64,000 bases of DNA from Escherichia coli (GTDB taxonomy: Bacteria > Pseudomonadota > Gammaproteobacteria > Enterobacterales > Enterobacteriaceae): NCBI RefSeq assembly GCF_030013205.1, contig NZ_CP122648.1. The stretch is one strand, 5' to 3'. The notes beneath the pieces were generated by a model. It worked only from the letters and a program-made list of their open reading frames with translations. It made no database searches and was not told where the DNA came from. Of the stretch, positions 43,793 through 54,270 are shown in pieces. The first letter of the stretch is position 1, and the number at the start of each line of letters is the position of its first letter. The translations under genes and the position numbers were made by a program.

Positions 43793-45154
<1,362 letters not shown>

Positions 45155-45293
45155 AACGTGAGGAAATACCTGGATTTTTCCTGGTTATTTTGCCGCAGGT
45201 CAGCGTATCGTGAACATCTTTTCCAGTGTTCAGTATGGTGCCTTGCACGGTAATTATGTCACTGGTTATTAACCAATTTTTCCTGGGGGATAA

Positions 45294-46433
45294 ATGAGCG
45301 CGGGAAGCCCAAAATTCACCGTTCGCCGCATTGCGGCTTTGTCACTGGTTTCGCTATGGCTGGCAGGCTGTTCTGACACTTCAAATCCACCGGCCCCGGT
45401 CAGCTCCGTTAATGGCAATGCGCCTGCAAATACCAATTCTGGTATGTTGATTACGCCGCCGCCGAAAATGGGGACGACGTCTACAGCTCAGCAACCGCAA
45501 ATTCAGCCGGTACAGCAGCCACAAATTCAGGCAACTCAACAACCGCAAATCCAGCCGGTGCAGCCAGTAGCTCAGCAGCCGGTACAGATGGAAAACGGAC
45601 GCATCGTCTACAACCGTCAGTATGGGAACATTCCGAAAGGCAGTTATAGCGGCAGTACCTATACCGTGAAAAAAGGCGACACACTTTTCTATATCGCCTG
45701 GATTACTGGCAACGATTTCCGTGACCTTGCTCAGCGCAACAATATTCAGGCACCATACGCGCTGAACGTCGGTCAGACCTTACAGGTGGGTAATGCTTCC
45801 GGTACGCCAATCACTGGCGGAAATGCCATTACCCAGGCCGATGCAGCAGAGCAAGGAGTTGTGATCAAGCCTGCACAAAATTCCACCGTTGCTGTTGCGT
45901 CGCAACCGACAATTACGTATTCTGAGTCTTCGGGTGAACAGAGTGCTAACAAAATGTTGCCGAACAACAAGCCAACTGCGACCACGGTCACAGCGCCTGT
46001 AACGGTGCCAACAGCAAGCACAACCGAGCCGACTGTCAGCAGTACATCAACCAGTACGCCTATCTCCACCTGGCGCTGGCCGACTGAGGGCAAAGTGATC
46101 GAAACCTTTGGCGCTTCTGAGGGGGGCAACAAGGGGATTGATATCGCAGGCAGCAAAGGACAGGCAATTATCGCGACCGCAGATGGCCGCGTTGTTTATG
46201 CCGGTAACGCGCTGCGCGGCTACGGTAATCTGATTATCATCAAACATAATGATGATTACCTGAGTGCCTACGCCCATAACGACACAATGCTGGTCCGGGA
46301 ACAACAAGAAGTGAAGGCGGGGCAAAAAATAGCAACCATGGGTAGCACCGGAACCAGTTCAACACGCTTGCATTTTGAAATTCGTTACAAGGGGAAATCC
46401 GTAAACCCGCTGCGTTATTTGCCGCAGCGATAA
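45294..46433 (+). CDS. nlpD: murein hydrolase activator lipoprotein NlpD
   Basis: 379-aa ORF: lipoprotein signal (LAGCS), Q/P-rich repeats, LysM and C-terminal LytM/M23 domain. Confidence 0.9.
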
Positions 46434-46495
46434 ATCGGCGGAACCAGGCTTTTGCTTGAATGTTCCGTCAAGGGATCACGGGTAGGAGCCACCTT

Positions 46496-47488
46496 ATGAG
46501 TCAGAATACGCTGAAAGTTCATGATTTAAATGAAGATGCGGAATTTGATGAGAACGGAGTTGAGGTTTTTGACGAAAAGGCCTTAGTAGAAGAGGAACCC
46601 AGTGATAACGATTTGGCCGAAGAGGAACTGTTATCGCAGGGAGCCACACAGCGTGTGTTGGACGCGACTCAGCTTTACCTTGGTGAGATTGGTTATTCAC
46701 CACTGTTAACGGCCGAAGAAGAAGTTTATTTTGCGCGTCGCGCACTGCGTGGAGATGTTGCCTCCCGCCGCCGGATGATCGAGAGTAACTTGCGTCTGGT
46801 GGTAAAAATTGCCCGCCGTTATGGCAATCGTGGTCTGGCGTTGCTGGACCTGATCGAAGAGGGCAACCTGGGGCTGATCCGCGCGGTAGAGAAGTTTGAC
46901 CCGGAACGTGGTTTCCGCTTCTCAACATACGCAACCTGGTGGATTCGCCAGACGATCGAACGGGCGATTATGAACCAAACCCGTACTATTCGTTTGCCGA
47001 TTCACATCGTAAAGGAGCTGAACGTTTACCTGCGAACCGCACGCGAGTTGTCCCATAAACTGGACCACGAACCAAGTGCGGAAGAGATCGCAGAGCAACT
47101 GGATAAGCCAGTTGATGACGTCAGCCGTATGCTTCGTCTTAACGAGCGCATTACCTCGGTAGACACCCCGCTGGGTGGTGATTCCGAAAAAGCGTTGCTG
47201 GACATCCTGGTCGATGAAAAAGAGAACGGTCCGGAAGATACCACGCAAGATGACGATATGAAGCAGAGCATCGTCAAATGGCTGTTCGAGCTGAACGCCA
47301 AACAGCGTGAAGTACTGGCACGTCGATTCGGTTTGCTGGGGTACGAAGCGGCAACACTGGAAGATGTAGGTCGTGAAATTGGCCTCACCCGTGAACGTGT
47401 TCGCCAGATTCAGGTTGAAGGCCTGCGCCGTTTGCGCGAAATCCTGCAAACGCAGGGGCTGAATATCGAAGCGCTGTTCCGCGAGTAA
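46496..47488 (+). CDS. rpoS: RNA polymerase sigma factor RpoS (sigma-38)
   Basis: 330 aa from the ATG at 46496 ([14 protein letters not shown]); sigma-70-family regions 2 to 4; no premature stop. Confidence 0.95.
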
Positions 47489-47503
47489 GTAAGCATCTGT
47501 CAG

Positions 47504-47540
47504 AAAGGCCAGTCTCAAGCGAGGCTGGCCTTTTTCTTTT
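47504..47540 (+). terminator. rpoS intrinsic terminator
   Basis: aaaggccagtctc-aagc-gaggctggccttt followed by ttctttt. Confidence 0.7.
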
Positions 47541-47607
47541 GGTTGGGGAGCCGGTGTGTTTGTGGGCTGGATAAGCCGCAATAGCGTCTCATCCGGCAAT
47601 TTGCACC

Positions 47608-48015
47608 CTATGTGTTCATCATCTTGCGCACTAGCTGCATAAACAGCTCCTGCTCTTCTCCACTCAAACGCCCCAAAAATTCCTCATCCACGCTGTCACC
47701 TATCGGTATCGCCGCAGCAAGTATCTTTTCGCCTTCGGCAGTCAGCCAGACAAAGCGTCGCCGCTTGTCAGCGGCGTCATGTTCACGTCTGACTAAGCCA
47801 CGATTTTCCATTCTTGCCAACATTTCTGCCAGCGTTGCTTTGGTGCTGACGGCTGCTTCCATCAGTGCCACCTGTTCGATACCAGGTTTATCAGCAATGG
47901 CGCGCATCACCGCGTACTGTGGTTTGGTCAGATCAGGTAACTCGTGCTGCCAGCGGGCCGTGTGTTGCTGAAAAAGCTGTCGTAACTGATGGAACGCTTT
48001 ATTTCGTAACGCCAT
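47608..48015 (-). CDS. MarR-family transcriptional regulator (SlyA-like)
   Basis: 135-aa ORF with winged-helix MarR region; divergent from the decarboxylase operon. Confidence 0.75.
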   Translation of the reverse strand: MALRNKAFHQLRQLFQQHTARWQHELPDLTKPQYAVMRAIADKPGIEQVALMEAAVSTKATLAEMLARMENRGLVRREHDAADKRRRFVWLTAEGEKILAAAIPIGDSVDEEFLGRLSGEEQELFMQLVRKMMNT

Positions 48016-48110
48016 GTAAACTCCGGGCTAATTCTCTGTCGCTATCATAGCGGTTTTTCAGTGACGAAGAAGATGTTGTTACTTTTCAATCCTTGCCGCT
48101 GTGGAAATGA

Positions 48111-48124
48111 AGGAGTATGTTAAT
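48111..48124. promoter_or_regulatory. perfect 14-bp palindrome, candidate operator
   Basis: gttcgtatacgaac is its own reverse complement; lies in the 146-bp divergent intergenic region, 38 bp upstream of the ecdB ATG. Confidence 0.45.
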
Positions 48125-48161
48125 AATAACGTTCGTATACGAACAATTAAGAGAGTAAGCA

Positions 48162-48755
48162 ATGAAACTGATCGTCGGGATGACAGGGGCTACCGGTGCG
48201 CCTCTTGGTGTGGCATTACTGCAAGCGCTGCGGGAGATGCCGAATGTCGAGACTCATCTGGTGATGTCGAAGTGGGCGAAAACCACTATTGAACTGGAAA
48301 CGCCTTACAGCGCTCGCGATGTTGCCGCCCTCGCAGACTTCAGCCATAACCCGGCGGATCAGGCGGCGACTATCTCTTCCGGCTCCTTTCGTACCGACGG
48401 CATGATCGTTATTCCATGCAGTATGAAAACGCTCGCCGGTATCCGCGCTGGTTACGCCGATGGCCTGGTGGGGCGCGCGGCGGACGTCGTGCTCAAAGAA
48501 GGCCGCAAACTGGTGCTGGTGCCGCGTGAAATGCCGCTTAGCACAATCCATCTCGAAAATATGCTCGCACTTTCGCGCATGGGCGTGGCGATGGTGCCGC
48601 CGATGCCTGCCTTTTATAACCATCCCGAAACGGTAGATGACATTGTCCACCACGTGGTAGCCCGCGTGCTGGATCAATTTGGCCTCGAACATCCTCACGC
48701 CAGGCGCTGGCAAGGATTGCCGCAGGCCCGGAATTTTTCTCAGGAGAATGAATAA
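48162..48755 (+). CDS. ecdB: UbiX-family flavin prenyltransferase, decarboxylase subunit B
   Basis: 197-aa ORF MKLIVGMTGATGAP, UbiX/Pad1 fold. Confidence 0.85.
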   Translation: MKLIVGMTGATGAPLGVALLQALREMPNVETHLVMSKWAKTTIELETPYSARDVAALADFSHNPADQAATISSGSFRTDGMIVIPCSMKTLAGIRAGYADGLVGRAADVVLKEGRKLVLVPREMPLSTIHLENMLALSRMGVAMVPPMPAFYNHPETVDDIVHHVVARVLDQFGLEHPHARRWQGLPQARNFSQENE

Positions 48756-50182
48756 TGGCATTTGATGATTTACGCAGCTTTTTACAGGCGCTTGATGACC
48801 ACGGCCAGTTACTGAAAATCAGCGAAGAGGTGAACGCGGAACCGGATCTGGCAGCCGCAGCCAACGCCACCGGGCGTATCGGCGACGGCGCGCCCGCGCT
48901 TTGGTTTGATAATATTCGCGGCTTTATCGATGCCCGCGTGGCAATGAACACCATCGGTTCCTGGCAGAACCACGCGATTTCCCTCGGCCTGCCGCCAAAC
49001 ACCCCGGTTAAAAAACAGATTGATGAGTTTATCCGCCGCTGGGATAACTTCCCCATTACCCCGGAGCGCCGCGCCAATCCAGCCTGGGCGCAGAACACCG
49101 TCGATGGCGACGAGATCAACCTGTTCGATATTCTGCCGCTGTTTCGTTTAAACGACGGTGATGGCGGTTTCTATCTCGATAAAGCGTGCGTGGTTTCCCG
49201 CGATCCGCTCGACCCGGATAACTTCGGCAAGCAGAACGTCGGCATCTACCGCATGGAAGTGAAGGGCAAACGTAAGCTCGGCCTGCAACCGGTGCCGATG
49301 CACGATATCGCTCTGCATCTGCATAAAGCGGAAGAACGCGGTGAAGATCTGCCGATTGCCATCACCCTGGGTAACGATCCGATCATCACCCTGATGGGCG
49401 CCACGCCGCTGAAATACGATCAGTCTGAGTACGAAATGGCGGGCGCGCTGCGCGAAAGCCCGTACCCGATCGCCACCGCCCCGCTGACCGGTTTTGATGT
49501 GCCGTGGGGCTCGGAAGTGATCCTCGAAGGGGTTATCGAAAGTCGTAAACGTGAGATTGAAGGGCCGTTCGGTGAGTTTACCGGCCACTACTCCGGCGGG
49601 CGTAACATGACCGTGGTGCGTATCGATAAAGTCTCTTACCGTACCAAACCGATTTTCGAATCGCTCTATCTTGGTATGCCGTGGACCGAAATCGACTACC
49701 TGATGGGGCCTGCCACCTGCGTGCCGCTGTATCAGCAACTGAAAGCCGAGTTCCCGGAAGTGCAGGCGGTAAACGCCATGTACACCCACGGCCTGTTGGC
49801 GATTATCTCCACCAAAAAACGCTACGGCGGCTTTGCCCGCGCGGTGGGCCTGCGTGCAATGACCACGCCGCACGGTCTGGGCTACGTGAAGATGGTGATT
49901 ATGGTCGATGAAGACGTTGATCCGTTCAACCTGCCGCAGGTGATGTGGGCGCTCTCCTCGAAAGTGAACCCGGCAGGCGACCTGGTGCAGTTGCCAAATA
50001 TGTCCGTGCTGGAACTCGACCCTGGCTCAAGCCCGGCGGGGATCACCGACAAGCTGATTATCGACGCCACCACGCCTGTCGCCCCGGACAACCGTGGTCA
50101 CTACAGCCAGCCGGTGGTGGATTTACCGGAAACCAAAGCCTGGGCTGAAAAACTGACCGCTATGCTGGCCGCACGTAAATAA
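48755..50182 (+). CDS. ecdC: UbiD-family aromatic acid decarboxylase, subunit C
   Basis: 475-aa UbiD-like ORF, start overlaps the ecdB stop. Confidence 0.85.
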   Translation: MAFDDLRSFLQALDDHGQLLKISEEVNAEPDLAAAANATGRIGDGAPALWFDNIRGFIDARVAMNTIGSWQNHAISLGLPPNTPVKKQIDEFIRRWDNFPITPERRANPAWAQNTVDGDEINLFDILPLFRLNDGDGGFYLDKACVVSRDPLDPDNFGKQNVGIYRMEVKGKRKLGLQPVPMHDIALHLHKAEERGEDLPIAITLGNDPIITLMGATPLKYDQSEYEMAGALRESPYPIATAPLTGFDVPWGSEVILEGVIESRKREIEGPFGEFTGHYSGGRNMTVVRIDKVSYRTKPIFESLYLGMPWTEIDYLMGPATCVPLYQQLKAEFPEVQAVNAMYTHGLLAIISTKKRYGGFARAVGLRAMTTPHGLGYVKMVIMVDEDVDPFNLPQVMWALSSKVNPAGDLVQLPNMSVLELDPGSSPAGITDKLIIDATTPVAPDNRGHYSQPVVDLPETKAWAEKLTAMLAARK

Positions 50183-50192
50183 GGAGAACAAG

Positions 50193-50429
50193 ATGATTTG
50201 TCCACGTTGTGCTGATGAACAGATTGAAGTGATGGCGAAATCGCCGGTAAAAGATGTCTGGACAGTCTATCAGTGCCAGCATTGCCTCTATACCTGGCGC
50301 GATACCGAACCGCTTCGCCGCACCAGCCGCGAACATTACCCGGAAGCGTTTCGTATGACGCAGAAAGACATTGATGACGCGCCAATGGTGCCGAGCATTC
50401 CGCCGCTGCTGGCGGAAGGTAAGCGTTAA
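50193..50429 (+). CDS. ecdD: small zinc-ribbon subunit D of the phenolic acid decarboxylase
   Basis: 78-aa ORF with CPRC ... CQHC motif; third gene of the UbiX/UbiD cluster. Confidence 0.7.
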   Translation: MICPRCADEQIEVMAKSPVKDVWTVYQCQHCLYTWRDTEPLRRTSREHYPEAFRMTQKDIDDAPMVPSIPPLLAEGKR

Positions 50430-50437
50430 TAAAAAGT

Positions 50438-50465
50438 GCCGGGTAGTGGCTTTGCTTTACCCGGC
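50438..50465. terminator. hairpin between convergent ecdD and pphB
   Basis: gccgggta / tacccggc 8-bp stem with 12-nt loop. Confidence 0.4.
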
Positions 50466-50718
50466 CTCATTACTTTATTTTATAAAATGACAGCCGCCCG
50501 CTTTTCGGCGATCCGGTATCAATATAAATCTGGTTTGCGAACGTCTGAATGTTATCAAACATCATATGTCCAAATATAAAATAATCAGCGCCGTTTATTT
50601 GTTGTAACTCGCCATTAAGCGATTTCTGCACACGATCAACAGGCCAGAGTAATTCTCTCTCCGCTATTTCTTTGCCAAAGAGATATTCACTCCCCGGATA
50701 ATCGGTAATGACTCCAAC

Positions 50719-51222
50719 TTACTGATAGTGTTTTATGTTCAGATAATGCCCGATGACCTTGTCATGCAGCTCCACCGATTTTGAGAACGACAGTGACTTC
50801 CGTCCCAGCCTTGCCAGATGTTGTCTCAGATTCAGGTTATGCCGCTCAATGCGCTGAGTATAACGCTTGCTGATAACGTGCAGCTTTCCCTTCAGGCGTG
50901 ATTCATACAGCGGCCAGCCATCCGTCATCCATACCACGACCTCAAAGGCCGACAGCAGGCTCAGAAGACGCTCCAGTGTGGCCAGAGTGCGTTCACCGAA
51001 GACGTGCGCCACAACCGTCCTCCGCATCCTGTCATACGCGTAAAACAGCCAGCGCTGACGTGATTTAGCACCGACGTAGCCCCACTGTTCGTCCATTTCA
51101 GCGCAGACAATCACATCACTGCCCGGTTGTATGCGCGAGGTTACCGACTGCGGCCTGAGTTTTTTAAGTGGCGGAAAATCGTGTTGAGGCCAACGCCAAT
51201 AATGCGTGCACTGGCGCGACAT
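50719..51222 (-). CDS. insB: IS1 transposase InsB reading frame
   Basis: 167-aa ORF overlapping insA; the InsAB' transposase is made by -1 frameshifting. Confidence 0.9.
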
Positions 51223-51416
51223 CCGACGCCATTCATGGCCATATCAATGATTTTCTGGTGCGTACCGGGCTGAGAGGCGGCGTAAGTGAACTGTAGTTGC
51301 CATGTTTTACGGCAGTGAGAGCAGAGATAGCGCTGATGTCCGGCGGTGCTTTTGCCGTTACGCACCACCCCGTCAGTAGCTGAACAGGAGGGACAGCTGA
51401 TAGAAACAGAAGCCAC
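51141..51416 (-). CDS. insA: IS1 protein InsA
   Basis: 91-aa [45 protein letters not shown]. Confidence 0.95.
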
Positions 51417-51708
51417 TGGAGCACCTCAAAAACACCATCATACACTAAATCAGTAAGTTGGCAGCATCACCGTCGGCTTCAGGGCAAAAAGAGAGTTGAT
51501 GTAAGCGGGATTGTAATAATTGATAGTCACCATGAATATCACCAACGGCCCATATATGGCGATAGTGATGGGCATTGATTTTTTGATAGCGTGTAGATGG
51601 CATGGTTTTACCCTGTAAAATAAGCTTTCCTATTATACAGGGTATTTTTATTTGATTCGTCAGTTGTCGTTAATATTCCCGATAGCAAAAGACTATCGGG
51701 AATTGTTA

Positions 51709-54270
51709 TTACACCAGACTCTTCAAGCGATAAATCCATTCCAGCGCCTGACGCGGGGTGAGTGAATCCGGGTCCAGGTTTTCCAGTGCCTCGACCGCAG
51801 GCGACGTTTCTTCTGGCACTGACAGCAAAGACATTTGCGTACCATCCACTTGCGTAGCGGCGGCGTTCGGCGAAATGCTTTCCAGCTCACGCAGTTTTTG
51901 CCGTGCGCGCTTAATAACCTCTTTTGGCACGCCCGCCAGAGCAGCAACCGCCAGGCCGTAGCTTTTGCTCGCCGCGCCATCCTGCACGCTGTGCATAAAG
52001 GCAATGGTGTCGCCGTGCTCCAGTGCATCAAGATGCACGTTGGCGACGCCTTCCATTTTCTCCGGTAACTGGGTTAGCTCGAAATAGTGGGTGGCAAACA
52101 ACGTCAACGCTTTAATCTTATTCGCCAGATTTTCCGCGCACGCCCACGCCAGCGACAGACCATCGTAAGTGGAGGTTCCGCGCCCAATCTCATCCATCAG
52201 CACCAGACTGTACTCGGTGGCGTTATGTAAAATATTGGCGGTTTCGGTCATCTCCACCATAAAGGTTGAACGCCCGGATGCCAGATCATCCGCTGCCCCT
52301 ACGCGGGTAAAGATGCGATCGATAGGTCCAATCTCGACTTTTTGTGCCGGTACATAGCTGCCGATGTAGGCCATCAGCGCAATCAGTGCGGTCTGGCGCA
52401 TATAGGTACTTTTACCGCCCATATTCGGACCGGTAATGATCAACATGCGACGCTGCGGCGACAGGTTCAGCGGGTTGGCGATAAATGGCTCGTTCAGTAC
52501 CTGTTCAACCACCGGATGGCGGCCTTCGGTGATGCGAATACCCGGTTTATCAATGAAGGTCGGGCAGGTGTAGTTCAGGGTATAGGCCCGCTCCGCCAGG
52601 TTAACCAGCACATCAAGTTCTGCCAGTGCGCTTGCGCTCTGTTGCAACGCTTCCAGATGCGGCAACAGCAGGTCGAACAGCTCTTCATAAAGCTGTTTTT
52701 CCAGTGCCAGTGCTTTGCCTTTTGAGGTGAGAACTTTATCTTCGTACTCTTTTAGCTCTGGAATAATGTAGCGTTCGGCGTTTTTCAGCGTCTGGCGGCG
52801 CATGTAGTTAATCGGTGCCAGATGGCTTTGTCCACGGCTGATCTGAATGTAATAACCATGCACCGCGTTAAATCCGACTTTCAGCGTGTCCAGGCCGGTA
52901 CGTTCACGCTCGCGGACTTCCAGACGCTCCAGATAATCGGTCGCGCCGTCAGCCAGCGCGCGCCACTCATCCAGCTCTTCGTTATAGCCCGATGCGATAA
53001 CACCACCGTCGCGCACCAGTACCGGCGGTGTGTCGATAATGGCCCGCTCCAGCAGATCGCGCAGTTCGGCAAACTCACCCATCTTCTCACGCAGCGCCTG
53101 TACCGGTGCACTATTGACAGTTTCTAACTGCGCGCGCAGCTCCGGCAGTTGCTGGAAAGCGTGACGCATACGGGCCAGATCGCGTGGGCGAGCAGTTCGT
53201 AAAGCCAGACGCGCCAGAATACGTTCCAGGTCGCCGACCTGACGCAGTACCGGCTGCAGCTCGGCGGTGAAATCCTGCAATGCGCCAATAGTTTGCTGGC
53301 GCTCAAGCAAGACGCGGGTATCGCGCACTGGCATATGCAGCCAGCGTTTCAGCATACGGCTGCCCATCGGCGTGACGGTGCAGTCGAGCACAGAAGCCAG
53401 CGTATTTTCCGCACCACCCGCCAGGTTCTGGGTGATTTCCAGATTACGACGCGTCGCGGCATCCATAATGATGCTGTCCTGCTCACGTTCCATGGTGATG
53501 GAACGAATATGCGGCAGAGTCGTACGTTGGGTATCTTTCGCATACTGCAACAGACAACCGGCAGCACAAAGTCCGCGCGGCGCGTTCTCGACGCCAAAAC
53601 CGACCAGATCGCGGGTCCCAAATTGCAGATTCAACTGCTGGCGCGCGGTGTCGATTTCAAACTCCCACAGCGGGCGACGGCGCAGGCCGCGACGGCCTTC
53701 AATTAACGACATTTCAGCAAAATCTTCTGCATACAGCAGTTCCGCAGGATTAGTGCGTTGCAGTTCTGCCGCCATCGTTTCCCGGTCAGCCGGTTCGCTC
53801 AGGCGAAAACGACCGGAACTGATATCCAGCGTCGCGTAGCCGAAACCTTTACTGTCCTGCCAGATAGCCGCCAGCAGGTTATCCTGACGCTCCTGCAACA
53901 GCGCTTCATCGCTGATGGTGCCCGGCGTAACGATACGCACAACTTTGCGCTCAACCGGACCTTTGCTGGTCGCTGGATCGCCAATTTGTTCGCAGATGGC
54001 AACGGACTCGCCCTGATTCACCAGTTTGGCGAGGTAGTTTTCCACCGCATGGTAGGGGATCCCCGCCATTGGGATCGGCTCTCCCGCCGAAGCACCGCGT
54101 TTGGTCAGTGAAATATCCAGCAGTTGCGACGCGCGTTTTGCGTCGTCATAAAACAGTTCATAAAAATCACCCATCCGGTAAAACAGCAGGATCTCGGGAT
54201 GCTGGGCTTTCAGCTTGAGATATTGCTGCATCATGGGCGTATGGGCATCGAAATTTTCTATTGCACTCAT
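51709..54270 (-). CDS. mutS: DNA mismatch repair protein MutS
   Basis: 853-aa ORF with Walker [10 protein letters not shown] and canonical MutS domains. Confidence 0.95.

Follow-up and report, generated by a model that had tools for sequence, protein, structure and literature searches.

Is the short tandem repeat in the N-terminal linker of the Escherichia coli lipoprotein NlpD a slippage-prone array that commonly varies in copy number between strains, or is it an old feature that is held in place by what the linker does? We examined the repeat in a 64,000-nucleotide stretch of E. coli DNA (the window; NCBI RefSeq assembly GCF_030013205.1, contig NZ_CP122648.1), in which an earlier note, made from the letters alone, had pointed out tandem QQPQIQ-type repeats in the proline/glutamine-rich linker and suggested that they are prone to slippage. 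The likely answer, in our reading, is that this previously described Q/P-rich repeat is a flexible, disordered spacer composed of old units, in which slippage is rare and length is under stabilizing selection.

The repeat and its place in NlpD

The identity of the gene is secure. Its product scores 679 bits against the NCBIfam NlpD equivalog NF008123 (PRK10871; cutoff 311) over residues 4-379, nlpD is the annotation at this locus in every matching RefSeq genome, and the gene order surE-pcm-nlpD-rpoS in the window is the usual one, also seen in annotated RefSeq loci. The protein is 100% identical to NlpD of K-12, and the two genes differ at 14 synonymous nucleotides, 4 of which lie inside the repeat region. 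Half of the 14 are found within 217 nt surrounding the repeat (45395-45611), where synonymous diversity looks higher than elsewhere in nlpD. Annotations differ as to where the gene begins: in several inspected genomes RefSeq PGAP places the start at a TTG at 45339, 15 codons after the ATG at 45294, yielding a protein of 364 instead of 379 aa (e.g., WP_224692580.1) that would have its signal peptide cut, while the curated K-12 record uses the ATG. This discrepancy is an annotation inconsistency, not biology.

The lipidated Cys26 is invariant in an alignment of 61 orthologs. Among PDB entries, the C-terminal domain is related to the LytM domains of DipM and EnvC; the active site of the NlpD domain is degenerate, its translation reading NKGID and RLHFE, without the metal-ligand His, at positions that we assign, from general features of the M23 family, to the metal-ligand motifs HxxxD and HxH. 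Activation of AmiC at the septum by NlpD is described in the literature (PMC5533458; bioRxiv 10.1101/2021.01.05.425367).

Between the lipidated Cys and the LysM domain lies the linker that carries the repeat (Table 1). Residues 27-122 searched alone match no Pfam family at E<=10. AlphaFold2, run on the 61-ortholog alignment, gives pLDDT <50 and hardly any secondary structure over residues 23-114; block means are 28-36 over the repeat and 72-82 over LysM. None of the solved structures includes residues before ~235. A folded or catalytic role of the repeat is unlikely. The second linker, between LysM and the degenerate LytM domain, is Ser/Thr/Pro-rich and also predicted to be disordered (pLDDT <50 for residues 174-263); two linkers predicted to be disordered had been described by Tsang et al. 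(2017; PMC5533458). Published DISOPRED and linker analyses (PMC5533458; bioRxiv 10.1101/2021.01.05.425367) likewise assign disorder to the N-terminal linker.

Table 1. Coordinates in the window of nlpD, its domains and repeat, and neighboring genes
Feature	Position	Strand	Description
nlpD CDS	45294-46433	+	379 aa + stop; murein hydrolase (AmiC) activator lipoprotein; from the open reading frame list
Signal peptide with lipobox LAGC	45294-45371	+	Read from sequence; lipidated Cys26 codon 45369-45371
N-terminal linker, residues 27-122	45372-45659	+	Domain-free, predicted disordered
Repeat unit 1, QQPQIQPV (aa 66-73)	45489-45512	+	CAG CAA CCG CAA ATT CAG CCG GTA
Repeat unit 2, QQPQIQAT (aa 74-81)	45513-45536	+	CAG CAG CCA CAA ATT CAG GCA ACT
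Repeat unit 3, QQPQIQPV (aa 82-89)	45537-45560	+	CAA CAA CCG CAA ATC CAG CCG GTG
Degenerate tail QPV-AQQPVQ (aa 90-98)	45561-45587	+	In-frame reading
Imperfect 2 x 9-nt tandem (QPV QPV)	45552-45569	+	CAGCCGGTG CAGCCAGTA; site of the commonest indels (+9/-9) in other strains
12-nt direct repeat, copy 1	45504-45515	+	CAGCCGGTACAG; end of unit 1
12-nt direct repeat, copy 2	45576-45587	+	CAGCCGGTACAG; end of tail
Antisense ORF over the repeat	45481-45684	-	67 aa
LysM peptidoglycan-binding domain (aa 123-165)	45660-45788	+	Pfam PF01476, E 2.7e-12
Second linker (residues 167-260)	45792-46073	+	LysM to degenerate LytM
Degenerate LytM / Peptidase_M23 (aa 279-372)	46128-46409	+	Pfam PF01551, E 4.6e-33
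rpoS	46496-47488	+	
MarR-family regulator	47608-48015	-	
UbiX-like flavoprotein	48162-48755	+	
UbiD-like decarboxylase	48755-50182	+	
IS1 transposase fragment	50719-51222	-	
mutS	51709-54270	-	

Three in-frame 24-nt units and a degenerate tail make up the repeat (Tandem Repeats Finder: period 24, 2.9 copies, 69% matches, score 77; a second repeat search recovered the same three copies). The span proposed for it in the earlier note, 45481-45570, does cover the array, although it starts 8 nt early and ends inside the tail. The description of the units as near-identical holds for the peptides, pairs of which share 8/8, 6/8, and 6/8 residues, and fails for the DNA, where they share 21/24, 17/24, and 15/24 nt (63-88% identity), with no exact in-register run longer than 9 nt at offset 24 or 11 nt at offset 48.

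Could such a pattern be the chance product of low complexity, that is, a Q/P-rich stretch that seems periodic without true duplication? The linker does have a biased composition: Q makes up 16 and P 14 of the 72 residues from 27 to 98. However, its best self-match, 12/16 residues, was reached by 0/20,000 shuffles of the whole linker and by 3/20,000 when the Q/P-rich part was shuffled by itself; the self-match of the DNA, 33/48 nt, was reached by 0/2,000 codon shuffles; and natural alleles gain or lose exact units. We regard the probability of a chance origin as negligible, and the tandem arrangement that had been noticed in the Q/P-rich linker is genuine.

How old are the units? In every Escherichia array the differences between QQPQIQ cores are all synonymous: in the E. 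albertii cores variation touches 6/6 third codon positions and 0/12 first and second positions. By contrast, codons 7-8 of the unit change freely across alleles and species (PV, AT, SA, TA, QV, PI, and PA). Because the count used a QQPQIQ regular expression, which is circular where degenerate units are skipped (such as RQPQAQPV in Cedecea), the synonymous pattern is claimed for Escherichia arrays, in which the matched units are consecutive and equal the whole array. Together, the diverged DNA and the synonymous-only core differences indicate that the units are old copies held at the peptide level and not recent products of slippage.

Length alleles among E. coli genomes

How often does the array change length? 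With a 300-nt query, the region was recovered from 5,420/5,426 complete E. coli genomes. Among evenly spaced matches, the native full length was recovered in 59/59 with this query and in 57/59 with a 160-nt query, the remaining 2/59 being end-trimmed alignments of unchanged length. With the 160-nt query taken from K-12, identity was >=95% in 5,398/5,419 genomes and 90-95% in 21, with none lower, and coverage fell below 80% in only two genomes. The 21 records at 90-95% were sorted with bait queries into four that carry an extra 9 nt, seven that lack 9 nt, nine SNP-rich alleles of native length, and one unclassified. Roughly 10 of these records had been candidates for further indels, of which 9 proved to be the SNP-rich, native-length alleles (the EC42405 type at 93.8% identity; 2013C-4282 and WL297 at 93.1%). 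Only 86/5,420 genomes reach >=99% identity with the window across 300 nt. When the divergent allele of Escherichia SCPM-O-B-8794 was used as query, no close relative appeared among complete E. coli genomes.

In total, 13 of ~5,420 genomes (0.24%; a sampling-biased count of genomes and not of independent events) carry a length variant of >=9 nt: four of +9, seven of -9, one of +48, and one of -72. The canonical length is thus found in 99.76% of the 5,420 complete genomes, and whole units change in just two (0.04%). Megablast searches with synthetic allele baits found no 2-unit and no 4-unit alleles in the 5,426 complete genomes; the baits picked up the +48 and +9 alleles instead. The comparison across E. 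coli genomes that had been proposed as a check on copy number therefore returns a double answer, since variants do exist and the array is nearly fixed at three units.

The variants look like products of slippage or unequal exchange at their junctions, and all observed length changes are multiples of 3 that keep the reading frame. In Z142-6, a 72-nt in-frame deletion between the two CAGCCGGTACAG 12-mers leaves one unit; in PapRG-04-4, units 2 and 3 are duplicated (48 nt), which makes five. The commonest indels, +9 nt (an extra QPV; four complete genomes, two haplotypes) and -9 nt (loss of a QPV; seven complete genomes), fall in the QPV tail and not in the QQPQIQ units. In 13P460A (+9) and 2014C-3061 (-9) every QPV copy is CAGCCAGTA, which points to a parent whose 18-nt tandem was perfect, whereas the two 9-nt QPV copies of the window allele differ at 2/9 positions. 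In Rb-50 (+9), it is the CAGCCAGTG copy that was duplicated, on a K-12-like haplotype and with one mismatch between the two copies. Indels thus track local repeat perfection. Z142-6 and 2014C-3061 share a backbone (NNKPAATT, not NNKPTATT) and the same GCC...GTA repeat haplotype, and this haplotype family may be more prone to indels. The possibility that Z142-6 is a recent derivative of its sibling Z142-1 was ruled out, as 10/1,559 nt upstream differ.

Do these alleles recur beyond complete genomes? We looked up exact protein sequences in a collection of ~15 billion proteins and counted contigs for each allele. The native allele was found on at least 1,000 contigs, the -9 nt allele on 633, the +9 nt allele on 234, the one-unit (-72) allele on 38, and the five-unit (+48) allele on 6. 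Predicted alleles turned up as well: a 2-unit allele AT-PV (25 contigs), a 2-unit allele PV-PV (1 contig, a Shigella flexneri record), and a 4-unit allele PV-PV-AT-PV (3-6 contigs); two other predicted alleles were absent from the ~15 billion proteins. The 2-unit allele lost 24 nt at a CAGCA microhomology and is carried by two haplotypes or more, with 8 differences in 1,516 nt; in the 4-unit allele, the added unit joins the start of unit 2 to the end of unit 1 as a hybrid. The length variants are therefore genuine and turn up repeatedly in separate assemblies; copy number does differ between some strains, with alleles of one, two, three, four, and five units and with an added or lost QPV. Scaling from the +/-9 alleles suggests that the collection holds several hundred thousand E. 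coli contigs, which would put whole-unit variants very roughly at 1e-5 to 1e-4, the native count itself being known only as at least 1,000.

These numbers bear directly on the idea of a hypervariable slippage locus, contingency- or VNTR-like, whose copy number would commonly differ between strains. Length variants of several sizes with slippage-type junctions, and an array of four units in E. albertii against three in E. coli, are what such a locus would show. On the other side stand the near-uniform canonical length, the two lone whole-unit changes, the lack of 2-unit and 4-unit alleles in complete genomes, and DNA units too diverged to share exact runs longer than 11 nt; furthermore, a unit length that is a multiple of 3 makes switching by frameshift impossible. 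We consider a hypervariable locus very unlikely. Synonymous divergence has removed the long perfect repeats, and the array is consequently a poor substrate for slippage today, so the suggestion that it is slippage-prone is overstated.

The linker across Enterobacterales and its probable role

Is the repeat conserved outside E. coli? A degenerate nucleotide pattern coding for the motif GDTLFYIAW of LysM brought up nlpD in the genomes of 120 species of Enterobacterales. Four units are present in E. albertii, against three in a divergent lineage of Escherichia; two copies of QQPQIQPV occur alongside RQPQAQPV in Cedecea and Enterobacter sp. Ag1; degenerate versions (PQIQPVQ...QPTQIQPV) occur in Salmonella, Citrobacter, and Enterobacter; and Kosakonia has QPV four times. 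In 25 Enterobacteriaceae sequences, PQIQPVQ of unit 1 (aa 68-74) is 70-90% conserved, as is the QPVQ tail within the family, whereas conservation of units 2-3 is poor beyond Escherichia. In Yersiniaceae and Hafniaceae the Q/P region is missing and the linker is ~59 aa, in agreement with Tidhar et al. (2009; PMC2736372), and the region is absent from Morganellaceae too. Where Enterobacteriaceae carry the Q/P repeat, Rouxiella (Rouxiella aceris) has ~4 tandem GGGGMLQGN-like units, and Pantoea and Erwinia (Erwiniaceae) have repeated GGM(L/I)S-type units; different tandem repeats have been acquired independently at one linker site in different families. In spite of this sequence turnover, the linker from Cys to LysM measures 96-109 aa in 32/32 Enterobacteriaceae species, compared with ~79 aa in Morganellaceae and 77-114 aa in Erwiniaceae. 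This clustering of linker length by family may reflect family-specific geometry of the envelope.

From these patterns we infer a spacer function. The repeat would form the last third of a disordered tether that runs from the outer-membrane anchor at Cys26 to LysM, and the length of the tether and its Q/P-rich, structure-free character would let anchored NlpD reach septal peptidoglycan and AmiC; the tether may also help Lol-dependent sorting. The array would have arisen by duplication of a unit within Enterobacteriaceae, after which its units diverged at synonymous sites until only perfect repeats of 9-12 nt were left. Slippage or unequal exchange still yields the occasional in-frame variant (+/-QPV; 1, 2, 4, or 5 units), and these remain rare. 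Such rarity is consistent with stabilizing selection on linker length, which we hold to be probable, although a low mutation rate combined with drift could also account for it. The -9 and one-unit lineages persist, which indicates that changes in length are tolerated, and the NlpD of Yersinia and Serratia works with a ~59-aa linker and no Q/P region, which also counts against this reading.

El Rayes et al. [quoted passage not shown] This deletion stops just before the repeat and leaves residues 66-98 in place (bioRxiv 10.1101/2021.01.05.425367). The published requirement of the linker for efficient Lol-dependent outer-membrane targeting thus applies to residues 29-64 and not to 66-98 (bioRxiv 10.1101/2021.01.05.425367).

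Conservation of the QQPQIQ core at the peptide level is stricter than a model in which any disordered spacer would do predicts. Is QQPQIQ, then, a sequence-specific short linear motif, present three times for avidity, with the sequence and not length alone under selection? The synonymous-only core differences beside free codons 7-8 fit this view, as do the conservation of unit 1 and the tail across Enterobacteriaceae, the doubled QQPQIQPV of Cedecea and Enterobacter sp. Ag1, and the weak enrichment at midcell of a fusion containing only the N-terminal linker, reported by Tsang et al. (2017; PMC5533458). Against it are the absence of the Q/P region from Yersiniaceae, Hafniaceae, and Morganellaceae, the unrelated low-complexity repeats in Erwiniaceae and Rouxiella, the poor conservation of units 2-3 outside Escherichia, the persistence of one-unit and two-unit alleles in nature, and the lack of any structure in the AlphaFold2 prediction. 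We know of no binding partner for QQPQIQ. A motif of this kind, for which the candidate partners would be septal peptidoglycan, LolA, or a factor of the Tol-Pal or YraP pathway, seems to us unlikely. We are slightly more open, if still tentatively, to a broader form of the idea, in which QQPQIQ is either a selected motif or a polyproline-II-type ruler whose unit number sets the reach of NlpD from the outer membrane to septal peptidoglycan. If so, the natural alleles of 1-5 units and +/-QPV would be a ready test of tether length against amidase activation and sorting.

Might the repeat act instead at the nucleic-acid level, as a promoter, an RNA element, or an antisense gene affecting rpoS downstream? 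nlpD and rpoS are co-transcribed, with rpoS promoters in and before nlpD, and an antisense ORF overlaps the repeat (Table 1); this ORF probably arises mechanically from the CAG/CTG-rich stretch. However, no Rfam family was found in 44500-47700, and a scan of the locus for promoters and terminators found no sigma-70-like site in 45100-46600 and nothing in the repeat. The known main promoter of rpoS is ~570 nt upstream of the rpoS start, which is ~340 nt downstream of the repeat. Moreover, alleles differ freely at the synonymous positions of the repeat, which argues against constraint on the DNA or RNA. A role of this kind is extremely improbable, and the disordered spacer remains the reading that we favor.

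Beyond nlpD, rpoS of the window differs from that of K-12 MG1655 at 10/993 nt, giving RpoS Q33E and A239V; E33 is the usual wild-type residue and Q33 a peculiarity of K-12. In K-12, ygbN adjoins rpoS, unlike in the window, where 47608-54270 is thus the rpoS-mutS region, known to be variable, in an arrangement other than that of K-12.

Comparison with known systems

How does the repeat relate to what has been described before? It is already known: repeats are named in the title of the 1994 paper that reported nlpD (J Bacteriol 176:1630), as cited in PMC2736372; the P/Q-rich region of enteric NlpD was discussed by Tidhar et al. (2009; PMC2736372); and work on the linker followed in 2017 and 2021. 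No difference separates the 1994 protein from that of the window, in the three QQPQIQ units, the tail, or elsewhere, and the DNA differs at the 14 synonymous sites given above for K-12. Relative to the account of 2009, we add the anatomy of the units, the population census, and the differing or absent repeats of other families. The census and the catalogue of alleles are an incremental advance, and on its own the repeat matters little. It is neither a variable-number marker for strain typing nor a phase-variation switch. The catalogue of natural in-frame alleles of linker length (1-5 units) could, however, serve to probe residues 66-98, and a linker held at 96-109 residues across Enterobacteriaceae amid sequence turnover bears on how envelope-spanning tethers are sized.

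The repeat sits in one of the disordered linkers described for the outer-membrane lipoproteins RcsF, Pal, and NlpD (bioRxiv 10.1101/2021.01.05.425367), and disorder is predicted here too. With the phase-variable simple-sequence-repeat (contingency) loci of bacterial pathogens it has in common a tandem repeat within a gene of the surface or envelope, and units that are gained and lost in slippage-type events. Near-perfect DNA units, common variation in copy number, and switching of expression by length are missing here, however; the units of NlpD are imperfect and a multiple of 3 nt long, their variation amounts to ~0.2%, and there is no on/off switching. The (Glu-Pro)n/(Lys-Pro)n spacer of TonB is another likeness—proline-rich, non-globular, and built of repeats that give an anchored protein its reach across the periplasm—although its sequence is unrelated, its anchor lies in the opposite membrane, and homology is not implied.
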